A stretch of 64,000 nucleotides of DNA, from NCBI GenBank assembly GCA_963745965.1, contig CAVUZC010000006.1, positions 148,895 to 212,894 of the forward strand, written 5' to 3'. Positions 45,194 to 57,874 of the stretch are shown here, piece after piece (positions within the stretch are counted from its first letter, which is position 1; every line of letters begins with the position of its first letter). The notes below the pieces were generated by a model that was given only the letters and a program-made list of their open reading frames with translations, was not told where the DNA came from and searched no databases. The DNA comes from an uncultured Acidobacteriota bacterium. Its GTDB lineage: Bacteria; Acidobacteriota; Terriglobia; Terriglobales; Acidobacteriaceae. The translations under genes and the position numbers were made by a program.

Positions 45194-48100
45194 GTGAGTA
45201 CGGGAACGACACGAAAGACCTGGTCTTTTCTATTCGCCGTCCTGATTTGCACGCCGCTCATAGGCGCGCAGACCCCAACTGGCGCCGAGGCAATCCGCCT
45301 GAACAATCGCGGCGTCGCCTTGATGGGCCAGCAGTCGACCCAGCGCGCGGCCGATACCTTCGCCGCAGCCCTCCAAAAAGACCCAAAGCTGGCGCAGGCC
45401 GCAATCAACGAGGGCATCGCGCTGCTTGTCCTCGAAAAACTGGACGACGCCAAACCATATCTGCGCAAGGCGATCGCGCTCGATCCTAACAACCCTCAGG
45501 CGTGGTACAACCTCGGCCTCGCGCAACATGCGAGCAACGATCTGCCAAATGCGCTGGCCAGCTTTCAGCAGGCGGCGAAGCTCGATCCCAAAGACGTGGA
45601 CTCGCTCTATTTCGAGGGCGCGTGCTATCAGGAAATGGGCCAGTACGATCGGGCGATCGCAATTTTCAAGAAGACGCTCGCAATCAACCCGCTTCATGCT
45701 TCGGCCGAGTTCGCACTGGCGCGCTCGCTGCAACGCACCGGGCACACGGCGGAAGCGCGCGAGCACCTCAAAATCTTTCAGCACTTAACCAGCACAAAAA
45801 TCTCGTCGCCTATCGGCCTGTCCTACGGCGAGCGAGGCCGCTACTCCACAGTGACTCCGATCGAGGAACCTGAGTCCATTCAGCGTCCGATGATCCCGGT
45901 AAGGCTCGTTGCGCAGCCGATGGTTTCTGCCGCCGAGGCGCGCACATTCTTCACCACCGGCGGCGCGTGCATGATGGACGTCACCGGCTCGGGACAGATG
46001 GATCTGATCCTGATGCAGTCTGGCCCGCAAGCCATCCGCATCTTGCACAATCGGGGTGGCGGCAGCTTTGAGGTGTTGGATGTCGAAGCGGCCGGGCTGA
46101 AAGCGAGCGGCCATGCCGTCGCCTGCGCGGTGGGCGACTATGATCGCGACGAGATGAACGACCTTGCCGTGGCCATGGATGACCGCGTGCTTCTGTTCCG
46201 CAATCTGGGGCACGGCAAGTTCAAGGATGTAACGGCAACTTCCGGCATCGTCCCGCGCAATCGGCCCACCGGCATCACGTTTGTGGATTACGACCACGAC
46301 GGCAATCTCGATCTGCTGCTCACAGGCGCACCGGTACGCGCGGGCGGACCCTCCAACGTGCTGTGGCGCAACAACGGCGATGGGAGCTTCACCGAAAAGA
46401 CCGAGGAGACCGGCATCGGCGGAAGCGGCAAAACCGAGGCAGCAATTCTCACCGACTTTAACAACGATCGTGCCGTCGATCTTGCGGTGACAGGCGACGG
46501 GGCCGCGCCGATTCTCTATATAAATCCCCGCGAAGGCAAATATCCGACGCAGCCGCTGTACGAAGGTGTTGCGCTGCCGCCGACGACGGGCATCGCGGTG
46601 CTCGACTACAACAAAGACGGCTGGATGGATATAGCCGTGACCCACGCGGGAGCACCGGGCCTCACGCTGTGGCGCAACGTCGAAGGCCCCAACCACATCG
46701 GCCGCCGCTTCGAGCGCGTCGATCTGCCGCTCCACGGCGCATTGCGTGGATGGGGCGTGACACCCATCGATATCGACAACGATGGATGGATCGACCTTGC
46801 CGCGATTGTCGAAACGCGGGCCGGCCCGCGCGTGCGCGTCTTTCGCAACCGCGGTGACGGCGCCTTTGAAGACATGAGCCATGCGCTGGGCCTGGACAGT
46901 ATCCGCCTGACTGCGCCGCGCGGGCTGATCGCCGCCGACGTAGACGGCGACGGCGCTCCCGATCTGATCGTGACCCAGCTAAACGCGCCGCCGCTGCTGC
47001 TGCGCAACCTGGGAGCGAACAAGAACCACTTCGTCCGTCTCGACCTGACCGGCTTCGCAGACAATAAGACCGCCCTGGGCGCGAAGGTCGAAGTCTTCGC
47101 CAACGGGCTCTGGCAAAAATGGGAGCTTGCCGGAGCATCGGGCTACCAGACGCAGGCGCCGCCGCAGATTCTCGTCGGCCTTGGCCAAGCGCCGGGCATC
47201 GACCTGTTGCGCATCCTGTGGCCCACCGGCGTCCTCCAGGATGAAATTGACTTGCCGCAGACGCGGGTGATCGCCATGAAAGAAGCCGACCGGCGCGGCA
47301 GTTCCTGTCCGGTGCTCTTCGTCTGGAATGGGCACCGCTACAAATTCGTCACTGACGTCATCGGCGCAGCGGTTGTCGGCCACTGGTTCACGCCCACGCG
47401 TCGCAACACGCCGAATCCCGGCGAATGGGTGAAGGTGGACGGCGCAGATGTCGCGCTCGTGAACGGCAAAATCAGCGCGCGCTTTATGGAGCCCATGGAA
47501 GAGGTGAACTACATCGATCAGTTGCGCATGATCGCCGTCGATCACCCCGAAGACGTCGAGGTCAATCCCGATGAGCGCTTTCTCGACGATCCACCGTTCG
47601 CTTCTGGCCGCGTGATCGCAAGCAAAGGCACGCGCCTGCCCCTCGGCGCTTGGGACGGCGAAGGACGCAATGTGCTCGACCTGCTCAGCCGGCGGGATCA
47701 CAACTTTGCCAGTGGATTCACCGCTCTGCCCTACGATGGTTTCGCCAGTCTGCACGCGCTCACACTCGATCTGGGCCCGCTCGACGCGCATGCCTCGCTG
47801 CGTCTGCTGATGACCGGCTACGTGAACTACTTCAGCGCGACCTCGCTCTATGCCGCTTGGCAGGCGAATGTGAAGGAGATTCCGCCGTACGTTGAAGCCG
47901 AGCTTCCTGACGGCGTCTGGCAGCGCATTCCGGGCGACGCAGGATTTCCCGCCGGTCTCGATCGCACCATCGTCATCGACCTGACGGGCAAGCTGCCGCC
48001 AGGCACGCGCCGCATCCGCCTGATGACGAATTTGCAAATCTATTGGGACCAGGTGCTCATCGACCAAAGTTCCGATGCAGAATCGCGCACGACAGAGATT

Positions 48101-48637
48101 CCCCTGGCCAGCGCGACGCTCCACTTCCGCGGCTACCCCAAGCAGATCGACCTCGCGAGTCCCGGCGATCTCGATTACAACTACGATCTCGTCAGTTTGA
48201 CCGGCCCCTTCCAGCACGAGCGCGGCAGTTACACGCGCATGGGCGAGGTGACGCCGCTCTTAAGAAATATTAGCGACCGCTTTGTGGTCTTCGGCAGCGG
48301 CGAAGAAATTCGCGCAGAGTTCGACGCATCACACTTGCCCGCGCTGCCCCCGCACTGGAAGCGCGACTACTTCTTCTACGCCAACGGTTATGTCAAAGAC
48401 ATGGACTGGTGGGACGCGTCGCCCTTCACCGTGGCGCAAATGCCATCGCATCGAATGTCCACATACCCTTATCCAAAATTAGAAGAAAATGTGCGGTCCC
48501 TCGACTATCAGTTGAACTGGAACGACCGTTTCGACTCGGGCGAACCAGTTCGCTCCTACCGCTTCGACTACAAACTGCTGCCTTCAACGCCGAGCGACGA
48601 TCGCGAGCTGCAGACCGCGCCGGAGACACAGCCATGA
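45194..48637 (+). CDS. TPR + FG-GAP/VCBS + ASPIC/UnbV multidomain secreted protein (paralog 3)
   Basis: GTG start with signal peptide; TPRs (NNRGVALM, AWYNLGLA); DYDHDGNLD, DIDNDGWID; LGAKVEV...SGYQTQ...ILWPTGVLQDE; GSSCPVLFVWNG C-terminal extension. Confidence 0.88.
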   Translation: MSTGTTRKTWSFLFAVLICTPLIGAQTPTGAEAIRLNNRGVALMGQQSTQRAADTFAAALQKDPKLAQAAINEGIALLVLEKLDDAKPYLRKAIALDPNNPQAWYNLGLAQHASNDLPNALASFQQAAKLDPKDVDSLYFEGACYQEMGQYDRAIAIFKKTLAINPLHASAEFALARSLQRTGHTAEAREHLKIFQHLTSTKISSPIGLSYGERGRYSTVTPIEEPESIQRPMIPVRLVAQPMVSAAEARTFFTTGGACMMDVTGSGQMDLILMQSGPQAIRILHNRGGGSFEVLDVEAAGLKASGHAVACAVGDYDRDEMNDLAVAMDDRVLLFRNLGHGKFKDVTATSGIVPRNRPTGITFVDYDHDGNLDLLLTGAPVRAGGPSNVLWRNNGDGSFTEKTEETGIGGSGKTEAAILTDFNNDRAVDLAVTGDGAAPILYINPREGKYPTQPLYEGVALPPTTGIAVLDYNKDGWMDIAVTHAGAPGLTLWRNVEGPNHIGRRFERVDLPLHGALRGWGVTPIDIDNDGWIDLAAIVETRAGPRVRVFRNRGDGAFEDMSHALGLDSIRLTAPRGLIAADVDGDGAPDLIVTQLNAPPLLLRNLGANKNHFVRLDLTGFADNKTALGAKVEVFANGLWQKWELAGASGYQTQAPPQILVGLGQAPGIDLLRILWPTGVLQDEIDLPQTRVIAMKEADRRGSSCPVLFVWNGHRYKFVTDVIGAAVVGHWFTPTRRNTPNPGEWVKVDGADVALVNGKISARFMEPMEEVNYIDQLRMIAVDHPEDVEVNPDERFLDDPPFASGRVIASKGTRLPLGAWDGEGRNVLDLLSRRDHNFASGFTALPYDGFASLHALTLDLGPLDAHASLRLLMTGYVNYFSATSLYAAWQANVKEIPPYVEAELPDGVWQRIPGDAGFPAGLDRTIVIDLTGKLPPGTRRIRLMTNLQIYWDQVLIDQSSDAESRTTEIPLASATLHFRGYPKQIDLASPGDLDYNYDLVSLTGPFQHERGSYTRMGEVTPLLRNISDRFVVFGSGEEIRAEFDASHLPALPPHWKRDYFFYANGYVKDMDWWDASPFTVAQMPSHRMSTYPYPKLEENVRSLDYQLNWNDRFDSGEPVRSYRFDYKLLPSTPSDDRELQTAPETQP

Positions 48638-50055
48638 AGGAGAAGGAGCGCGATCTGGTGCTCGCTCCAGCCGCGCAGCAGTTGGAATGGTTGCGCGCTG
48701 GCCGAATCTCAGTGGCTGAGCTGGCCGAAGCCCACATCCGTCAAATCGAGCGCCTCAATCCGCAACTGAACGTCTTTGCAGACTTTGACGCGGAACGCGT
48801 TCGCGAGCGGGCGCGGAAGCACGATGAGTGGCGCGGCACCCGGTCCCGCAGGCCATTGTTCGGTTTGCCGGTGACGGTGAAGTCGTCAATCGCAACGCGT
48901 GGATTTAAGTGCGAAATCGGCAGCCTGCTGCATAAAGGCGACGTGCCAGCTGAAGATGCGGTCGTCGTCGCGCGCTTGCGCGCCGCCGGAGCCTTGATTC
49001 TCGGCACCACCAACTGTCCCGAATTCCTGATGGCCTACGAAACCGCCAACCTGCTGCATGGCCGCACGAGCAATCCGTGGGATCTTGCCCGCTCTCCCGG
49101 CGGATCGAGCGGCGGCGAATCGGCCGCCATTGCCGCGGGAATGTCGGCGGGCGGATTGGGCTCGGACAGCGGCGGATCGGTGCGCGTGCCCGCGCACTTC
49201 ACAGGCATTTGCTCGCTCAAACCCACGCCGGGCCGCATTTCCGGGCGCGGGCATCTGCCGCCGTGCGTGGGGCCGTTCTCCACTCTCGGCGCCATCGGGC
49301 CTATGGCGCGCACCATCGGTGACGTCGCATTGTTCTTCCGCACCCTCAGCGGTCAGGACCCGCTCGATCCCGCCAGTCCCCCGATCACGTACCGCGAGCC
49401 CTGCCTCGAAGAGCTGCGCTCCCATCGCATCGGATTCTTCGAAGACGACGGTCTCGTTCCCGTGACAACAGAGACGCGCGCCGCGGTGAATGCCGCAGCC
49501 GCGGCCCTCCGTGACGCCGGTTTTCGCGTCGAGCCGTTCCGGCCGCGCACCCTCGAGCCGCTGCGCAAGTTGTGGTGGACATTCTTCGTGCAATGCGGCG
49601 CCATGTTTTACGAGCCGGAGATTCGCGGCCGGCGTCACCAACTCAGCCCTATCTTCAGCGAATTCCTCTCCATCGCCGAAGCCTCCGCTCCGCTCACCGC
49701 GACGGAGTTGCTCAATGCCTGGGCCGAGCTGGACCTTCTGCGCTCCAAAATGCTCGCGGAGATGAAGGATTATCCCGTCCTCCTCTGCCCGGTAGCCGCA
49801 ATTCCTGCGTTCCGTCACGGAGAGCGCAGTTGGACCATCGACGGCGCAGAAGTTGCCTACCTCGACGCGGTCCGCTACACGCAGTGGTTCAACACGCTCG
49901 GTGCACCGGCAGCGGTGGTTCCCGTGGGCCGCTCGCCGGAAGGCTTGCCGATCGGCGTGCAGATTGCCGCCCGCCCATTCGAGGATGAAGTAGCGCTGGG
50001 CGTCGCCGCCGTCGTCGATGCGGCCTTCGGCTTCCGCCCTCCCGCCCTCGCCTGA
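48634..50055 (+). CDS. Amidase signature family enzyme
   Basis: GLPVTVKSSI, PGGSSGGESAA, GSDSGGSVRVPA (Ser-cisSer-Lys triad), GLPIGVQI; ATGA overlap with the upstream gene. Confidence 0.93.
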   Translation: MKEKERDLVLAPAAQQLEWLRAGRISVAELAEAHIRQIERLNPQLNVFADFDAERVRERARKHDEWRGTRSRRPLFGLPVTVKSSIATRGFKCEIGSLLHKGDVPAEDAVVVARLRAAGALILGTTNCPEFLMAYETANLLHGRTSNPWDLARSPGGSSGGESAAIAAGMSAGGLGSDSGGSVRVPAHFTGICSLKPTPGRISGRGHLPPCVGPFSTLGAIGPMARTIGDVALFFRTLSGQDPLDPASPPITYREPCLEELRSHRIGFFEDDGLVPVTTETRAAVNAAAAALRDAGFRVEPFRPRTLEPLRKLWWTFFVQCGAMFYEPEIRGRRHQLSPIFSEFLSIAEASAPLTATELLNAWAELDLLRSKMLAEMKDYPVLLCPVAAIPAFRHGERSWTIDGAEVAYLDAVRYTQWFNTLGAPAAVVPVGRSPEGLPIGVQIAARPFEDEVALGVAAVVDAAFGFRPPALA

Positions 50056-50187: not shown

Positions 50188-51084
50188 TTGCCGAAAGCCC
50201 CGGCGTTCTTGGTCGGCGCGAGCCGTCGGCGAACGCTCGTTCCGGTGCGCGATTTCTTCGTCGGCGGAGACGAATTCGTCATCATGGCCGGGCCGTGCTC
50301 GGTTGAAACCGAAAGCCAGCTCATGGCCACGGCCCGTCATGTACGCCAGGCAGGCGCGCGCATCCTGCGCGGCGGCGCATTCAAGCCGCGCACCTCTCCG
50401 TATGCTTTCCAGGGTCTTGGTCTCGAAGGTCTGAAGCTTCTTGCCCGCGCGAGCGAAGCCACCGGGCTGGCAGTAGTCACCGAGGTGCTGTCGGAGACCG
50501 ACGTCGCGCTCGTCGCCGAATACGCCGACATCCTGCAAATCGGCTCGCGCAGCATGGAGAACTACGCTCTTCTCGAAGCCGCCGCACGATCCGGGCTTCC
50601 CATCCTCCTCAAGCGCGGCATGATGGCGACGATCGCGGATTTCCTCCGCGCGGCCCAGATCATCCTCGACCATGGCAACCCCAACGTCATTCTCTGCGAG
50701 CGCGGCATCCGTACCTTTGAAACCGCGATGCGCAACACCTTCGATGCGGCCGGCATCGCGCTCCTCAAGCAAGTCACGCACCTGCCCGTCATCGCCGATC
50801 CCAGCCATGCCTGCGGCTGCCGCGAGCTGGTTCCCGCGCTGGCGCGCATCGGCGTGGCTGCCGGTGCCGACGGCCTCATCGTCGAAGTGCATCCCGATCC
50901 CGACAATGCGTGGAGCGACGGCGAGCAGTCGCTCGATTTCCCCGCATTCGATGCCATGATGAACGCGTTGGAACCGTGGATCGAAGGTCGCGCCACGGCC
51001 CTCAATGGCGCCGCGGCGGTCTTGGAAGACAAGCTGGAACAGCACGAATTCGCCGGCCTCCGCATGGCGGGGGCATCGCGATGA
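50188..51084 (+). CDS. aroF: 3-deoxy-7-phosphoheptulonate (DAHP) synthase, class I-beta, lacking an N-terminal regulatory domain
   Basis: [58 protein letters not shown]. Confidence 0.9.
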
Positions 51085-52496
51085 CGTTTCATTCTCGGAA
51101 GGCTGCCGCAACCGTAGCCATTGCACTCCTGATTCTGGCCGGCGGTTTTGCACTCAGCAGAGCCAACGCGCCGGTTCCACTAATTGAAAGCGACATCATC
51201 GTGACCGCCGCGCCCGTTTACGTGCCCCTCGCCGAACTGCATGGACAGGAGCGATTTCCCAAGGGCGCGCAGTTGCTGCTGATTCATGCGGGCAAGGCGG
51301 AACCTCTCGTCACCGGCTTCGCGGCAACAGCGGATGCAAATGTTTCGTTCGACGCACAGACCGTGCTCTTCGCCGGACAACAAAATGAAAAAGACCCCTG
51401 GCAGATTTGGGAGCTCTCGCTCAGAGATCGCTCCGTGCGCAAAGTAATTGCGAGCGAAGGCAATGCGGAACGCCCGCTCTATCTGCCCGGCGGGCGGATG
51501 GTCTGGGCCGAGCGCACGCCCTCAGGATTTCAATTGCAATCCGCTGCGGATGGCCATCCAGCCGACGGCACCCAGTGGAATCCCACCGCCGGCCCCGGCG
51601 TGCTGCCGCTCAGCTACATCCAAGGCAACGCGTTTCCCGCCGACGTCCTGCGCGACGGCAGAATTCTGTTTGAGTCCGATTACCCGCTCGGCGCAGGCTC
51701 GACACCGGAGCTGTATCTCGTCTACGCCGATGGATCGGGCATCGAGTCGGTGCGCTGCGATCATGGCCGCCCGCGCTGGGGCGGAGCGCAGCTCTCGACT
51801 GGCGACATCGTATTCACGCACGGAACTTCGCTTGCCCGGTTCACTTCCCCTCTCGCGCGCGAAGTGCCGCTCCCCTCACCTCCCGCACACTACGCCGGGT
51901 CCATCGCGGAAACCGCATCGGGCACATGGCTCGTGAGCGCGCGCACAGCGACCGACGCACACTATGCCATCAGGATGTGGCAACCCGGTTCAGCGGCACT
52001 GCGCACAGTCTTTGCTCAAACCCGCGTGGATCTCGTCGAGCCGGTCGTCGTTGCGCCGCGTCCTCGTCCCAATCGCCACCCCTCCGGCCTGCACCCCTGG
52101 AACTACGCAAATCTGCTGGCTCTCGATGTGCGCATCTCGCGCGATGGCGCTCTGCGCGGTGTGCCCGCCAGCGTGCGGCTTGAAGTGCAAGATGCGACCG
52201 GAAAAATCAGCACTACAGGAGCCGCGCCCATCGAAAGCGACGGTTCGTTCTTTGTGCAGGTTCCGTCCGACCGGCCCATCCGCTTCGCAATCCTCAATGC
52301 CAAAGGCACGGTTCTGCGTCAGGAACACGGCTGGTTCTGGAGCCGCAGCGGCGAGCAGCGCATCTGCGTCGGCTGCCATGCCGGCCCGGAGCGCGCGCCG
52401 GAAAATCGCGTGCCAGCGGTGCTGCTGCGCACCATCACGCCATTCGACCTCACCGGAAAACCTCCGGCAGTCGCAGCAGGAGGGCTCTCCAAATGA
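51081..52496 (+). CDS. Hydrazine synthase alpha-subunit-like secreted protein (TolB-like propeller + HZS-alpha middle domain, one CxxCH)
   Basis: [12 protein letters not shown]...[43 protein letters not shown]...PIRF..L...G, W...[10 protein letters not shown]. Confidence 0.7.
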
Positions 52497-54310
52497 ATCT
52501 GCGCGCGGCCATTTTCACCGCGATCCTTTCTCTTACCTCGGCACATGCGCAAACCGCCGCGCCAGCAGCGGCTGCCGCCCCGCCCGCGCCGAGTTCTTCA
52601 GAACATCTACAGCCGGCGGCCAGCGTTCCCGCATCCAACGAGCAAACCGCATCTCCAGCCGCCATCGCGCCCACGAACGCGCCCGCCGGAAGCACCAACG
52701 CAAATGTTCCCGCCATCCGCTTTGAAGACACCACCGATTCCGCCGGCATCGACTTCGTGCACAGCTTCGGTTCGGCGCAGTTGGGATCGCTCCTCGAGGG
52801 CACCGGCGCCGGCTGCGTCTGGTTCGACTACGACAATTCGGGCCTGCCTTCGCTCTACGTCGCCAACGGCCGCCCGCTCGACAATTCCATGCATCCGCAT
52901 CCGCTCAAGGTGAAGCCCAATCCGCCGCCGCACAATCATCTCTACCGCAACGACGGCAACGGACACTTCACCGACGTAACCGACAAGGCCGGCCTCAACC
53001 CGGACATGTACTCGATCGCGGTCACTGCCGGCGATTACGACAATGACGGCAACGAAGATTTGCTCGTCACCGGCTACGGCAAGGTTGTTCTCTACCACAA
53101 CGACGGCGACGGCCACTTCACCGACGTTACCGAAAAAGCCGGCATCAAGGTCAGCGGCTGGGCCATCAGCTCCACATGGATCGACTACGACAGGGACGGC
53201 TGCCTGGATCTGTTCGTCGGCCGCTACGTCAAATTCGATCCCAAGTACCGCGCCTACTACGCCGCCGACAACTATCCCGGTCCGCTCGATTACGCGGGCG
53301 AAACCAACATGCTCTTCCACAACAACTGCAACGGCACTTTTACCGATGTAACTGACAAGTCGGGCATCGGCAGCTACGTCGGCCGCACCATGGGCGTCAC
53401 CATCGGCGATTTCACCGGCGACGGCTGGGACTCGATCTACGTTGCCAACGATCGCACGGAAAACTTTCTCCTCCACAACAAGCACGACGGAACCTTCGAA
53501 GACATCGCTTCCGACACCGGTACGGCCTTCGGCCAGAACGGCGAGTCCACCTCCGCCATGGGCCCCGTGTTTGCGGACTTCGGCAATCGCGGCGTGCTCG
53601 ATCTGTGGGTCTCCGATGCGCGTTACAACCGCATGTTGAAAAACACCGGCCAGATGAGCTTCGACGACATGGGCGCAACCAACGGCATCTCGCAGGCCAA
53701 CGCGCAATACACGAGCTGGGGTTCGGGCGTGTACGACTTCGATAACGACGGCAATCTCGACATCCTCATCTTCCACGGCGGCCTCATTCACCTCATTCCC
53801 GAAGAACATACGCTCTTCCGCGGATTGGGCAACGGAAAGTTCGAGGACGATTCGCTTGCCGCCGGTCCGGCACTCAGCACGCGCACCGTCGCCCGCGGCG
53901 CATGTTTCGCCGACTACATGAACGACGGCAAAGTGGGAGCCTTCGTCGTCAACCTCGGCGCGCGCGGCACGCTCCTGCGCAACGTCTCCACAAGCACCGG
54001 CCACTGGATCGACATAAATCTCGTGGGCGCCATGCGCGCCGGCGATCATGGCGCCCCTCCCGGCCCAACTTCCAAAAGCAACCGCGACGGCATCGGCGCG
54101 CGCGTTGAGGTCTTCGCTGGAAACTGGCATTCGCTTGAGGAGCGAGTGGCCGCATCGGGCTACCTTTCGCAGAACGATGGCCGCCTGCACTTCGGTCTCG
54201 GCGCGGCAACACAAGTGGACAAGATCGTAGTGCACTGGCCCAGCGGGCGCGAGCAGACGCTCGAACACCAGAGCGTAGACCGCGTGCTCACCATCGAGGA
54301 GCCGAAATGA
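52493..54310 (+). CDS. CRTAC1-like FG-GAP + ASPIC/UnbV protein (paralog 4)
   Basis: DYDNDGNED, DYDRDGCLD, DFDNDGNLD; GIGARVEV...ASGYLSQNDGRLHFGLG...VHWPSG. Confidence 0.9.
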   Translation: MNLRAAIFTAILSLTSAHAQTAAPAAAAAPPAPSSSEHLQPAASVPASNEQTASPAAIAPTNAPAGSTNANVPAIRFEDTTDSAGIDFVHSFGSAQLGSLLEGTGAGCVWFDYDNSGLPSLYVANGRPLDNSMHPHPLKVKPNPPPHNHLYRNDGNGHFTDVTDKAGLNPDMYSIAVTAGDYDNDGNEDLLVTGYGKVVLYHNDGDGHFTDVTEKAGIKVSGWAISSTWIDYDRDGCLDLFVGRYVKFDPKYRAYYAADNYPGPLDYAGETNMLFHNNCNGTFTDVTDKSGIGSYVGRTMGVTIGDFTGDGWDSIYVANDRTENFLLHNKHDGTFEDIASDTGTAFGQNGESTSAMGPVFADFGNRGVLDLWVSDARYNRMLKNTGQMSFDDMGATNGISQANAQYTSWGSGVYDFDNDGNLDILIFHGGLIHLIPEEHTLFRGLGNGKFEDDSLAAGPALSTRTVARGACFADYMNDGKVGAFVVNLGARGTLLRNVSTSTGHWIDINLVGAMRAGDHGAPPGPTSKSNRDGIGARVEVFAGNWHSLEERVAASGYLSQNDGRLHFGLGAATQVDKIVVHWPSGREQTLEHQSVDRVLTIEEPK

Positions 54311-56217
54311 ACCGCGTCGCCAAAGCCGGTCTGCTGGCCGCCTCATTTCTTGCAGCGGTTTTCATCGCTGCCGCGCCGTGGGCCGCAAAATCGGTTCACG
54401 CGGCGGCGCGCGCACGCACCGGCGAACCTCTCGTCTACGCCTCTCCCGTCGAGACCTTGTTTTCGCCCGACGGCGCGCGGCTTTACGTGCTTTGCCAGCA
54501 AAGCAACGACGTCCGCGTGCTCGACGCAACAACCTACAAAGTAATCGCCACAGTAGCCGTAGGCCGCGTCCCGCGCGGATTCGCGCTCTCGCCCGACGGT
54601 TCGCGTCTCTTCGTGGCCAACTCCTGGGACGACACGATCTCGGTCATCGACACGCAATCGTTGCAAGTCAGCATCACCTGGCCGGTCAGCGCGGAGCCGT
54701 CGAGCGTAGCCCAGGACCCAGCCGGCAAGTACATCTTCGTCGCCAATCGCATCTCGAACGACGTAGCCGTTCTCGACGCTCGCACCGGCGCGGAACTAAA
54801 GCGTCTCGCCGCCGGCCGCGGCGCGAGTTACATGACGCTCTCCCCCGACAGCCGACGCCTTTACGTTACGCATGTGTACCCGAACCTGCCCGCGCACGCC
54901 AGCGAACAGGGCAACCGGCTTCCGCCGGAGTCCGAGATCACCATCATCGACACCGCGCGCGCCGTAGTCGCCGATCGCATTCCCCTCCACAGCATCGCCG
55001 GCGTCTTTCACGTCGCCTTCACCGCAGACGGACGCTTAGGCGCAGTCGCCGAACTGCACCCCAAAAACCTTGTCCCGCTCGCGCATCTCGAGCACGGCTG
55101 GGCCTTCGCGGACACGCTGACTCTTTTTGGCGCTGACGTCGGTCCAAAACCAGTAGAAATACCTCTCGACGAGCTGGAGCGCTACGCCGCGCGACCCTTT
55201 GGCGTCGCCATCACGCCGGATAAATCACGCCTCTACGTCACCAGCGGCGGTTCCGAAATCGTGACCGCGATCGACGTTCGGCGTCTGCTCTCCACCGTGC
55301 GCGCGCGGCGCAAATCCTTCACCGAGGATCTATCGGCCAGCGCGAATTACGTCGTAACCCGCATCGACGTAGGCCACGATCCCCGCGGCGCAACCATCTC
55401 TCCTGACGGCCGCAAGCTCTTCGTCGCCAACCGTCTCGATGACACCATCAGCGTCATCGACACTCGCACCAATCGCGTGGCCGCAACCATCCCTCTGGAC
55501 GGACCGAAAGAGCTCTCGGTCCTGCGCTACGGCGAGCAAACTTTCTACACCGCCCGCTATTCCTTCCAGGGCCAGATCGGCTGCGCCAACTGCCACATCG
55601 ATTCCACCTTCGACGGCCTCGCCTGGGACCTCGAACCCGATGGCTTCGGCGTGGACATCGTGGAAAACAAACTGCTCGAGGGCGTCAAGAACGTCGCTCC
55701 CTACAAGTGGAACGGCGGCAATCCCAACCTGCCCACCGAGTGCGGCCCGCGCACGGAAAAATACTTCTGGCGCTCGGAGAGCTTCGACGATCTGACGCTG
55801 GCCGACCTCGTCACCTACATCCGCAGCCTGCAGCCCAGACCCAATCGCTGGCGTCTTCCGAATGGCGAATTGACCCCGGCACAGGAACGCGGCAAAGAAC
55901 TCTTCGAGCGCGCAACCGACAAACTTGGGGCGCCCATCCCGATCGAGAATCGCTGCTCCTATTGCCACAGCGGCCCCGAGGGCACTGATCGCAAACTCTC
56001 CGACGTGGGTACCAAGAAGCCCACCGACCGTTCCGGCATTTTGAAGACTCCTCAACTCACCAACATCGCGCTCATGGCGCCCTATCTGCACGACGGCTCC
56101 GCGCCATCGCTCGAAGAAATCTGGACCGTATTCAATCCCGCGGACAAGCATGGCCGCACCAACGACCTGACCAAAGACGAGCTTAATGACTTAATTGAGT
56201 ATTTGAGGACGCGATGA
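54307..56217 (+). CDS. YVTN beta-propeller fused to a diheme cytochrome c (CCP/MauG-like) domain; HzsB-HzsC-like architecture
   Basis: Repeated SPDGxRLYV/VAN...DTISVID; CANCH and CSYCH; PYKWNG; TPQLTNIALMAPYLHDGSA; DLIEYLRT. Confidence 0.85.
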   Translation: MNRVAKAGLLAASFLAAVFIAAAPWAAKSVHAAARARTGEPLVYASPVETLFSPDGARLYVLCQQSNDVRVLDATTYKVIATVAVGRVPRGFALSPDGSRLFVANSWDDTISVIDTQSLQVSITWPVSAEPSSVAQDPAGKYIFVANRISNDVAVLDARTGAELKRLAAGRGASYMTLSPDSRRLYVTHVYPNLPAHASEQGNRLPPESEITIIDTARAVVADRIPLHSIAGVFHVAFTADGRLGAVAELHPKNLVPLAHLEHGWAFADTLTLFGADVGPKPVEIPLDELERYAARPFGVAITPDKSRLYVTSGGSEIVTAIDVRRLLSTVRARRKSFTEDLSASANYVVTRIDVGHDPRGATISPDGRKLFVANRLDDTISVIDTRTNRVAATIPLDGPKELSVLRYGEQTFYTARYSFQGQIGCANCHIDSTFDGLAWDLEPDGFGVDIVENKLLEGVKNVAPYKWNGGNPNLPTECGPRTEKYFWRSESFDDLTLADLVTYIRSLQPRPNRWRLPNGELTPAQERGKELFERATDKLGAPIPIENRCSYCHSGPEGTDRKLSDVGTKKPTDRSGILKTPQLTNIALMAPYLHDGSAPSLEEIWTVFNPADKHGRTNDLTKDELNDLIEYLRTR

Positions 56218-57386
56218 GAAATCTTGCGCATCTGAGAGGTTTCGCAATGGCGCTTGCTCTGGCCGCCGCAGCGGCCGTGCAAGTCTCCAGCGCGCAACAT
56301 GCGCCCACCGTGCGGGCAGCGGCTCGGGCAACTAAAGCACAGATCTCGAAGACTTCCGCCTCAACTCAATCGCTTCCGCGTTTCCGCTTCCAGAACTTCA
56401 CCACCGCCGATGGCCTTCCCGACAATCACGTCTACGCGGTGCTGGTCGACGGAGATCGCATCTGGGCGGGCACAGACAACGGCGTCGGTCTCTACGAGAA
56501 CGGCAAATGGAAAACCTTCACCACGAAAGACGGCCTGGCCCAGCGCGCCGTGCTTTCGCTGGCCCTCGACAAGCGCACCGGCGCGGTGTGGGCCGGCACC
56601 ATGGGCGGGTTGAGCCGCATTTCTGCGGGTCGCATCGATACCTACACGCAACTCAACTCCGGCCTCAGCAACGATGTGGTCTACGGCGTCTCCGTGCAAG
56701 GCGACAACGTCTGGGTGGCAACAGCCGCCGGCGCATGCAGGCTGAACACCCGCACCGGCCAGTGGTCGCTCTGGAACGAACGCAACACGCCCATGCGCGA
56801 GATATGGGTCTATGGCGTCTCAGCCCAGCCGGACAAAGTCTACTTCGCGGTGTGGGGCAGCGGCCTGCTCGAGTACACGCAAAAGACCGGCGCATGGGAC
56901 ATCTACAAGGACCCCGACGGAGAAACCGAGGTCGTCGTGCTCAAGGATCAAGGTCTGATTCACGACATCACCAGTTCGGTCAGCTATGTCAACGGCATCG
57001 TCTGGGTCTCCACTTACTTCGGTGACAGTCGATACGACGGCCGCTACTGGCACAACTTCATGACCAAGGACAGCGGCCTGCCCTCCAACTTTACGAACTT
57101 CATCAAGGGCGTCGACGCGAACCGTGCCTGGTTCTGCACCGACAAAGGTCTGGCCTACTACGACGGCGCAAACTGGGCCGTCTATCGCCCTTCGCTCACC
57201 ACCGGCAAGCCGGAGATGACAGTCCGCGATGCACAGGGACGCGTCTCGGCAATCCCCGTCACCACAGCTCCGGCCCACAACTACATTCTCGGAATCGACT
57301 TTCAGGGCGACGACATCTGGGTCGCCACAGCCAAAGGATTGAGCCACGGAATTCGTCAACGATTCGCCAAGGAGGCATCACGATGA
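56214..57386 (+). CDS. Stand-alone secreted beta-propeller (Reg_prop-like repeats)
   Basis: FTTADGLPDNHVY, IWAGTDNGV, VWAGTMGGLS, GLSNDVVY, GLPSNF, IWVATAKGLS; no kinase domain. Confidence 0.8.
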   Translation: MRNLAHLRGFAMALALAAAAAVQVSSAQHAPTVRAAARATKAQISKTSASTQSLPRFRFQNFTTADGLPDNHVYAVLVDGDRIWAGTDNGVGLYENGKWKTFTTKDGLAQRAVLSLALDKRTGAVWAGTMGGLSRISAGRIDTYTQLNSGLSNDVVYGVSVQGDNVWVATAAGACRLNTRTGQWSLWNERNTPMREIWVYGVSAQPDKVYFAVWGSGLLEYTQKTGAWDIYKDPDGETEVVVLKDQGLIHDITSSVSYVNGIVWVSTYFGDSRYDGRYWHNFMTKDSGLPSNFTNFIKGVDANRAWFCTDKGLAYYDGANWAVYRPSLTTGKPEMTVRDAQGRVSAIPVTTAPAHNYILGIDFQGDDIWVATAKGLSHGIRQRFAKEASR

Positions 57387-57874
57387 GTGCATTTGCAGAA
57401 ATTCTTGAAGCCATCGCCCACGCGCCGGTAAAAAAACGTGCGATCACCAACCACAACGTCCTTAACGAGGCCTTCGCATACGCTAAGCCCAGCTCGTTCT
57501 CGCGCGGCATGAGAATCGATCTGGGCAGCGTAACCATTCTCCTGATCTCAGGCACGGCTTCCATCGACGAAACCGGCCAGAGCGTGCACATCGGCGATTT
57601 CCGCGCGCAGATGCGGCGCACGCTCTCCAACATCACCGGACTGCTGGCCGCCGAGGGCTGCACCTGGCACGACATCGTGCGCACCACCTGCTACCTCCGC
57701 GACATCGAGCGCGACTACGAAGCCTTCAACGAAGAGCGCACCACTTTCTTCAAGGAACAGGGGCTCGATCCGCTGCCGGCATCCACCGGCATTCAGGCCA
57801 TCCTTTGCCGTCCCGAGCTGCTCATCGAGATCGAGGCCATCGCAATGTTCCGCAACCAGAAGAGCAGCTCCTAG
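57383..57874 (+). CDS. Rid/YjgF family protein (non-RidA type, resembling the FkbO/Hyg5 C-terminal domain)
   Basis: LISGTASID..G...H.GD..AQ..RTL.NI; PASTGIQA.LCRPELLIEIEAIA; no Arg at the RidA PAR position. Confidence 0.8.
   Translation: MSAFAEILEAIAHAPVKKRAITNHNVLNEAFAYAKPSSFSRGMRIDLGSVTILLISGTASIDETGQSVHIGDFRAQMRRTLSNITGLLAAEGCTWHDIVRTTCYLRDIERDYEAFNEERTTFFKEQGLDPLPASTGIQAILCRPELLIEIEAIAMFRNQKSSS

Follow-up and report, generated by a model that had tools for sequence, protein, structure and literature searches.

A short HzsA-like haem protein of the Acidobacteriaceae with a conserved Cys-x-His loop

Does a protein that has only the first haem module of hydrazine synthase (HZS) also keep the unusual metal site built around that haem? 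The question is raised by a gene for a 471-residue protein, P0001, that lies within a stretch of 64,000 nucleotides (the window) from an uncultured soil bacterium of the Acidobacteriaceae (assembly GCA_963745965.1, contig CAVUZC010000006.1, positions 148,895 to 212,894 of the forward strand). In the alpha subunit of HZS, HzsA, His587 of the CxxCH motif and Cys303 bind zinc, Tyr591 binds the iron of haem alpha-I, and the potential of this haem is very low (PMC12607021, PMC12758564). The initial annotation of the locus, made from the sequence alone, named these ligands and the second haem domain of HzsA in agreement with both publications, and described P0001 as a minimal HzsA-like protein with one haem motif, a candidate zinc-ligand Cys and possibly a different axial ligand. 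We find that P0001 is homologous to HzsA and that its one free Cys belongs to a conserved Cys-x-His pair aligned with the loop of Cys303; the proposal of a different axial ligand found no support.

P0001 as a short homologue of HzsA

P0001 is a genuine structural homologue of HzsA that comprises the propeller and haem alpha-I module only. Pfam family PF18582 (HZS_alpha) matches the protein at E=1.6e-15, above the gathering threshold (Table 1), and is found as a single copy in the genome. By sequence, its sole relative in the PDB is chain A of 5C2V, HzsA of Kuenenia stuttgartiensis, which was detected at E=4e-9 with the single sequence and at E=1.7e-44 with a profile of 43 homologues. An AlphaFold2 (AF2) model built on the alignment of these homologues had a pLDDT (predicted local distance difference test) of 89.3 and a pTM (predicted template modelling score) of 0.86. 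When this model was used as a Foldseek query, 5c2v_A and 5c2v_D were the best matches, with E~1e-21 and a template modelling (TM) score of 0.72–0.74 normalized to query length, followed by TolB propellers; P0001 and HzsA are 17% identical in the structural alignment. The numbering of the 5C2V chain is offset by 27 from the literature numbering of HZS. Six-bladed TolB/PD40 propellers share with P0001 the PD40 repeat pattern and the fold of the N-terminal two thirds (profile E~1e-12, Foldseek TM ~0.46), but lack both the haem domain and the RCxH loop described below, and this likeness is one of scaffold only.

To compare P0001 with true HzsA, we searched with a degenerate DNA pattern that encodes CxGCHYGxYRG, which fetched hzsA genes of Kuenenia hertensis and Loosdrechtia. 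In all, 27 anammox HzsA were collected, 23 of which were used in a profile of true HzsA. Alignment of the P0001 subfamily to this profile by hhalign gave a probability of 99.93% over 406 columns and placed the CVGCH of P0001 on C583–H587 of HzsA. The same pattern also matched a Planctomycetota metagenome-assembled genome (MAG) from lake water, M_DeepCast_100m (L020, 6018–8000), and two proteobacterial MAGs (Thiolinea, L017, and Bermanella, L019), matches that may be due to chance in the proteobacterial cases. Across the 43 diverse homologues the CxxCH motif is invariant throughout, and the complete set of invariant residues is R194, G218, D387, S389, W418, E425, C429, G431, C432 and H433.

The content of the P0001 sequence agrees with what had been noted at the outset. 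A regular-expression search found one CxxCH motif only, CVGCH at residues 429–433, and three Cys in total: C429 and C432 of this motif and C226, which lies in the propeller within the sequence RCDH. The tail of 38 residues that follows H433 is free of Tyr, the last Tyr of the protein being Y342. Neither Pfam nor the motif search detected a second haem motif or a cytochrome c domain in P0001, and the haem alpha-II domain is absent. Export of the protein is predicted because of its hydrophobic N-terminal segment and because haem c attachment requires the periplasm. A further Cys position of the family falls at residues 128–129 (51463–51468), where most members have Cys in a 'DCxRP' motif that occupies the column of a Cys in the HzsA consensus 'GxCRSP'. 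This column is occupied by Ala129 in P0001 and its close relatives, whose branch has lost this widely kept Cys and retained C226.

P0001 is not HzsA proper, and not a hydrazine synthase. It scored 48.1 bits (E=4.2e-13) against the NCBIfam equivalog model hydrazine_alpha (NF052339), for which the cut-off is 800; it has no haem alpha-II domain; Tyr591, invariant in the 23 true HzsA, is represented by Glu437 or by a gap, depending on the alignment; and E425, invariant in the family, takes the place of a His or Gly of HzsA. These differences are the grounds for our assignment. The two proteins share the N-terminal propeller and middle domain, the CxxCH of haem alpha-I, a residue of the Cys/His type on the Cys303 loop, and a partner homologous to HzsB and HzsC. 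P0001 is about 340 residues shorter, and His228 is an extra residue relative to HzsA. In a tree of 77 alpha-type proteins, P0001 falls into a short-form clade apart from true HzsA and from the long forms.

The closest named relatives of P0001 are proteins from Terracidiphilus MAGs, all annotated as 'hypothetical'. Elsewhere in the databases the same type of protein is annotated as 'HzsA-related protein' or under the name HZS_alpha domain-containing protein, and the ESM Atlas lists the former family name together with domain fusions. In Planctomycetota these fusions join the propeller and HZS_alpha module to FGE-sulfatase, CBM-like, NPCBM and F5/8 type C domains, and PF18582 also matches Bacteroides thetaiotaomicron, a control genome. 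The module is a widespread building block that is at times tied to glycan-binding domains.

A Cys-x-His pair aligned with the Cys303 loop

In the AF2 model, C226 is located in the loop after a short inner strand of a propeller blade, as assigned by DSSP. Four alignments place this R225-C226-D227-H228 loop on the Cys303 loop of HzsA, in the same blade and right after the inner strand that follows an invariant DG turn, and support the position that had been proposed for a candidate zinc-ligand Cys, with either C226 or H228 on Cys303. A broad hidden Markov model (HMM) and a MAFFT alignment of 77 sequences continue from the DG turn without a gap, so that H228 falls on Cys303. With a gap of two residues, the subfamily HMM and hhalign match C226–D227 to Cys303–Asp304. 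The RCDH sequence accordingly covers Y300–C303 or N302–G305 of HzsA. In the MAFFT alignment, 22 sequences carry His at the Cys303 column, 13 carry Gln and 6 carry Cys. Where HzsA has GNC, long-form relatives have GNH or GNQ, and even in true HzsA residue 303 is variable, with Cys in proteins of the Kuenenia/Brocadia type and Tyr, Leu or Glu in others.

Among 25 close homologues, R225, C226 and H228 do not vary, and the RCxH motif is invariant in a subfamily of 17 members that extends down to 29% identity, with a mean column identity of 40%. Given this invariance and that of CxxCH, neither motif can be put down to chance. H228 and H433 are the only two His that are invariant in this subfamily. 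Across the whole family, represented by the 43 sequences, the three loop residues are not conserved. When 125 representative sequences that cover the site were scored for the Cys and the His of RCxH, 73 had both, 48 had neither and 4 were discordant. On the tree of 77 proteins RCxH marks two neighbouring short-form clades and was lost several times, with Cys and His disappearing jointly; the contrasts for this co-loss on well-supported branches all had the same direction (3 of 3, and 5 when all branches were used), a consistent pattern with a number of contrasts too small to be significant (p=0.25). The columns that separate RCxH-plus from RCxH-minus proteins are A84, R131, R225, R232, L404 and R450, and beyond the RCxH loop itself these discriminating columns include no further ligand-type residue specific to RCxH-plus proteins.

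As judged from these alignments, the branch of P0001 presents a Cys and a His, two residues apart, where the zinc ligand of HzsA points toward the His of CxxCH. Alpha-Cys303 has been reported as not conserved in any homologue (PMC12758564); for the branch of P0001, an invariant Cys-x-His at the aligned position of the Cys303 loop contradicts this statement. This conserved loop is the sole detail of our analysis that goes beyond the literature.

Two members of P0001's own clade lack the motif, with RNDA or RKDT in its place, and are encoded in reduced clusters (L022, Terracidiphilus sp002307235, GCA_002307235.1, 7666–12871; L023, 9001–12156). One cluster consists of cupin, alpha, beta-gamma and Rid genes and the other of alpha and beta-gamma; both are without the genes for the FG-GAP, Reg_prop, DAHP (3-deoxy-D-arabino-heptulosonate 7-phosphate) synthase and binding proteins that accompany P0001 (Table 1). 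Two other loci, L024 and L025, are RCxH-minus and yet have kept the full module. No rule that ties loss of RCxH to loss of the FG-GAP gene can be drawn, with two reduced clusters for it and two full clusters that contradict it.

Ligation of the haem and alternative readings of the loop

Which residues, then, would hold the iron? Glu437 of the sequence AGPE is the only candidate in the tail for the different axial ligand of the initial annotation. It is aligned with Tyr591 without a gap by phmmer and hhalign, whereas the broad profile in HMMER has a two-residue gap at Ser590/Tyr591, as does the published alignment (PMC12758564). Glu437 is replaced by Ala in an orthologue of 66% identity that retains RCDH, and by Ala or Ser throughout the RC[EQ]H clade. 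Because it is not conserved, Glu437 is unlikely to be an axial ligand, and its replacement in orthologues that retain RCxH rules it out as an essential substitute for Tyr591. We found no second conserved His or Met for the distal side, which would therefore be open. With Glu437 variable and no other ligand-type residue among the discriminating columns, the simplest and, from sequence, most likely reading is ordinary ligation of the iron by His433, with the Cys/His pair beside this proximal His. Hagglund et al. read a canonical haem pocket from a model of the S. fumaroxidans protein (PMC12758564).

On balance, we think it somewhat more likely than not that P0001 is the alpha-type subunit of a haem complex in the periplasm, one that resembles hydrazine synthase but is non-anammox, and in which the RCxH loop lies by the proximal side of the haem. 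The alpha and beta-gamma proteins would associate as they do in HZS, in a complex with two haem sites. The predicted alpha haem, attached to C429 and C432 and ligated by His433, would be catalytic or ligand-binding, with its distal side open. The RCxH loop of the propeller would rest against the proximal side, where HzsA has Cys303, and the pair would either provide a second-sphere thiol(ate) and imidazole next to the proximal His that tune the haem, or form an auxiliary metal site. Because the Tyr ligand is absent, the potential of the alpha haem would not be expected to be as low as that of haem alpha-I in HZS, and for this reason the reaction would be one other than the comproportionation of hydroxylamine and ammonia, predicted to act on a different small substrate.

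Several points speak against this interpretation. The alignments differ by two residues on whether C226 or H228 is the equivalent of Cys303, and the placement of both residues beside H433 rests on homology to 5C2V. The co-loss of Cys and His is based on just 3–5 independent contrasts. Complex formation, haem content and export of P0001 are predictions from sequence. Finally, a lone invariant Cys with a His at the second residue after it would more typically be part of a metal site than make a second-sphere contact, and this raises the zinc site that we consider next above its default likelihood.

Retention of the odd site of HZS is a tentative alternative. Here His433 would be off the iron and would bind zinc with C226, possibly also with H228, and the iron would be held by His228 or Glu437. 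The subfamily HMM and hhalign, which put C226–D227 exactly on Cys303–Asp304, and the ungapped match of Glu437 to Tyr591 are as this arrangement would have them. C226 is also the only free Cys of a protein that is predicted to be exported, it is invariant together with H228, with which it is gained and lost, and H228 and H433 have no other invariant His beside them in the subfamily. The substitution of Glu437 by Ala or Ser in proteins that keep the loop argues against such a site, as do the alignments, the published one among them, that open a gap at Ser590/Tyr591. Tyr591, the invariant ligand of true HzsA, has no equivalent in P0001, and it is Cys303 that varies among true HzsA, which argues that the zinc site is not the conserved core of the HZS site. 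We found no precedent for a haem c in which the His of CxxCH is diverted and a substitute for Tyr is lacking. In one specific form of this arrangement, C226 and His433 would hold zinc or another metal and His228 would replace Tyr591 on the iron, so that an axial ligand from another domain would sit beside a Lewis-acid metal. This form fits the strict linkage of Cys and His and the two invariant His of the subfamily; we regard it as rather unlikely.

The loop could instead be remote from the haem and serve the stability of the fold or an interface with the FG-GAP or beta-gamma protein, its alignment to Cys303 being a coincidence of propeller repeats. The disagreement by two residues between the two classes of alignment would be expected in this case, and the two RCxH-minus members of P0001's clade whose clusters have no FG-GAP gene hint at contact with that partner. 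Against this, all four alignments agree on the blade and on the loop between its inner and second strands, with the DG turn and the following strands in register; other RCxH-minus proteins retain the FG-GAP gene; and an invariant lone Cys with a His would be unusual in a purely structural loop. We consider a remote loop improbable.

The operon and its place among HZS homologues

P0001 is encoded in a chain of genes on the forward strand that five ATGA junctions link from the DAHP synthase gene to position 57874 (Table 1). Both ends of the alpha-type gene are such overlaps: its ATG with the stop of the DAHP synthase gene, and its own stop with the start of the next gene. The order of alpha, CRTAC1-like FG-GAP and fused beta-gamma genes is uninterrupted, and the three genes are translationally coupled. 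Relative to the genes of HZS, the order is reversed, an FG-GAP gene is inserted and the host is a non-anammox acidobacterium.

Table 1 Features of the P0001 gene and its operon, with positions in the window.
Feature	Position	Strand	Basis
DAHP synthase gene	50188..51084	+	Stop overlaps start of alpha-type gene (ATGA)
Gene for short HzsA-like (alpha-type) haem protein, P0001	51081..52496	+	Open reading frame, 471-residue translation
Putative N-terminal hydrophobic export signal or anchor, residues 1–30	51081..51170	+	Sequence; AF2 secondary structure (helix 5–21)
PD40/TolB-like beta-propeller, about residues 38–325	51192..52055	+	AF2 strand pattern; aligns to N-terminal propeller of HzsA; TolB next-best PDB matches
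R225-C226-D227-H228 loop	51753..51764	+	Subfamily-invariant Cys-x-His pair; aligned place of HzsA Cys303 loop
Match to Pfam HZS_alpha middle domain, residues 379–433	52215..52379	+	57.8 bits; cut-off 26.6
CVGCH, sole haem c attachment motif (C429, C432, H433)	52365..52379	+	Regular expression; aligned with HzsA C583–H587
C-terminal tail of 38 residues without Tyr; Glu437 at His+4	52380..52493	+	Translation, regular expression
Gene for FG-GAP/UnbV_ASPIC (CRTAC1-like) protein, between alpha and beta-gamma	52493..54310	+	Pfam FG-GAP_3 2.3e-39, UnbV_ASPIC 8.4e-22
Fused HzsB/HzsC-like protein: YVTN propeller and CCP (cytochrome c peroxidase)/MauG-like dihaem domain (CANCH, CSYCH)	54307..56217	+	NCBIfam hydrazine_BC 4.5e-57, score under its cut-off
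Reg_prop propeller and Rid-family genes, end of ATGA-chained operon	56214..57874	+	Pfam, ATGA junctions

The beta-gamma protein matches 5c2v_B over its full length (E=1.6e-41) and 5c2v_C at E=3.5e-24, and scores 194 bits against NCBIfam hydrazine_BC, for which the cut-off is 1250. Only two CxxCH motifs were found in it by regular expression. The Cys of its NLPTECG sequence, C479, aligns with gamma-Cys165 of HzsC, which forms a third covalent link to haem (PMC12758564), and the position aligned with gamma-His144 is a Trp, a feature of CCP/MauG proteins. A Cys at the gamma-Cys165 position has been published for clade I homologues only (PMC12758564) and is found here too.

The operon from DAHP synthase to Rid is kept in all seven Acidobacteriaceae loci that we fetched, with DAHP synthase directly upstream of alpha in six of them, and the core of alpha, FG-GAP and beta-gamma genes is also present on a metagenome contig whose alpha protein is 33% identical. 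The wider module comprises DAHP synthase, alpha, FG-GAP, beta-gamma, Reg_prop, Rid and a solute-binding protein, to which a TPR-ASPIC protein and an amidase are often added. In the window a large protein with TPR, FG-GAP and ASPIC domains and an amidase are encoded upstream, at 45200–50055, and the pair accompanies the operon in other Acidobacteriaceae: with side and direction relative to alpha unchanged in L010 and L016, and inverted on the far side of alpha in L011. Both proteins probably belong to the functional unit of the operon. Of 150 other genomes in the family, 19 have the alpha gene, which is absent from the one other genome of the same genus; it is an accessory gene with a patchy distribution in the Acidobacteriaceae. 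For the maturation of haem c, the genome has three genes of the Cytochrom_C_asm family, and no maturation gene of the ResB type was found in it. The genes that may supply the complex, for DAHP synthase, a Rid-like protein, an amidase and a binding protein, are a hint that the compound in question is aromatic or an amine.

The partner protein bears on a further reading of C226, in which this Cys is reactive and forms either an extra thioether to the haem, comparable to that of gamma-Cys165, or a cross-link or cofactor matured by a MauG-like partner, with H228 as acid/base. The CCP/MauG-type dihaem domain of the beta-gamma protein, with Trp at gamma-His144 and the Cys of the third link retained, would suit this chemistry, as would the family-invariant W418 and W420 by the haem motif and the lack of a disulfide partner for C226. 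The argument is purely one of analogy, and we found no signature in the sequence for any known cross-linked cofactor; homology to Cys303 indicates the proximal side and not the edge of the haem; and RCxH-minus relatives retain the same operon, so that the Cys is not essential to the system. A reactive C226 is in our view very improbable. That the cluster is a cryptic hydrazine synthase that forms N–N bonds as in anammox is scarcely credible, despite homology at the level of the fold to all three HZS subunits and the retained equivalent of gamma-Cys165, given the NCBIfam scores of both proteins (48/800 for alpha, 194/1250 for beta-gamma), the absence of Tyr591 and haem alpha-II, the Trp in place of gamma-His144, the Acidobacteriaceae host and the patchy occurrence of the gene, and the published analysis concludes likewise (PMC12758564). 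KinJ, of a heme hydrazine-forming family of natural-product pathways (bioRxiv 2025.05.27.656397), was checked and is unrelated.

The interpretation that we favour, an alpha-type subunit of a non-anammox complex, agrees with recent descriptions of such genes. Dalcin Martins et al. (2023; PMC10732223) proposed a broad family of hzs-like genes that acts on other substrates. Hagglund et al. (2025; Genome Biol Evol 18:evaf244, PMC12758564) described non-anammox clusters of HZS homologues, including a 'clade II' in which an FG-GAP/CRTAC1 gene separates alpha from a fused beta-gamma gene downstream, the haem alpha-II site and the final ~100 residues are missing from alpha, beta-gamma has no extra haem motifs, and Trp is found at gamma-His144. 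The locus of P0001 shares with these clusters the gene order, the short alpha protein, the beta-gamma protein with two motifs, the Trp at gamma-His144 and the lack of an equivalent of Tyr591, and would belong to clade II by these sequence features, as distinct from a place in the authors' trees. It differs in that Cys303 was reported as unconserved among all the homologues, whereas the aligned loop carries an invariant Cys-x-His in the branch of P0001. The main text of that study is without Acidobacteriaceae, and Terracidiphilus appears in its supplementary hit tables only. The related but distinct chemistry that the initial annotation foresaw is a reasonable expectation, and one that is not new, being the published view of the homologues. 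P0001 is a member of a known, recently described and functionally uncharacterised family and does not extend the catalogue as such.

For a long time hydrazine synthase was believed to have no relatives, and it was only in 2025 that its homologues from ordinary soil bacteria were catalogued. Our analysis corrects one published detail for this family: a large branch centred on the Acidobacteriota has a strict Cys-x-His at the position of the zinc-binding Cys303, a residue that is variable in true HzsA. The pair offers a cheap and specific handle for the first biochemistry of the family, in a protein of 471 residues with one haem. In metagenomes, genes of this kind should not be taken as markers of anammox. 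The conserved loop also bears on whether the haem and zinc site of HZS was inherited or invented: were C226 and His433 to hold zinc with His228 on the iron, the odd pairing of haem and zinc would predate hydrazine synthase and would not be an invention of anammox bacteria.

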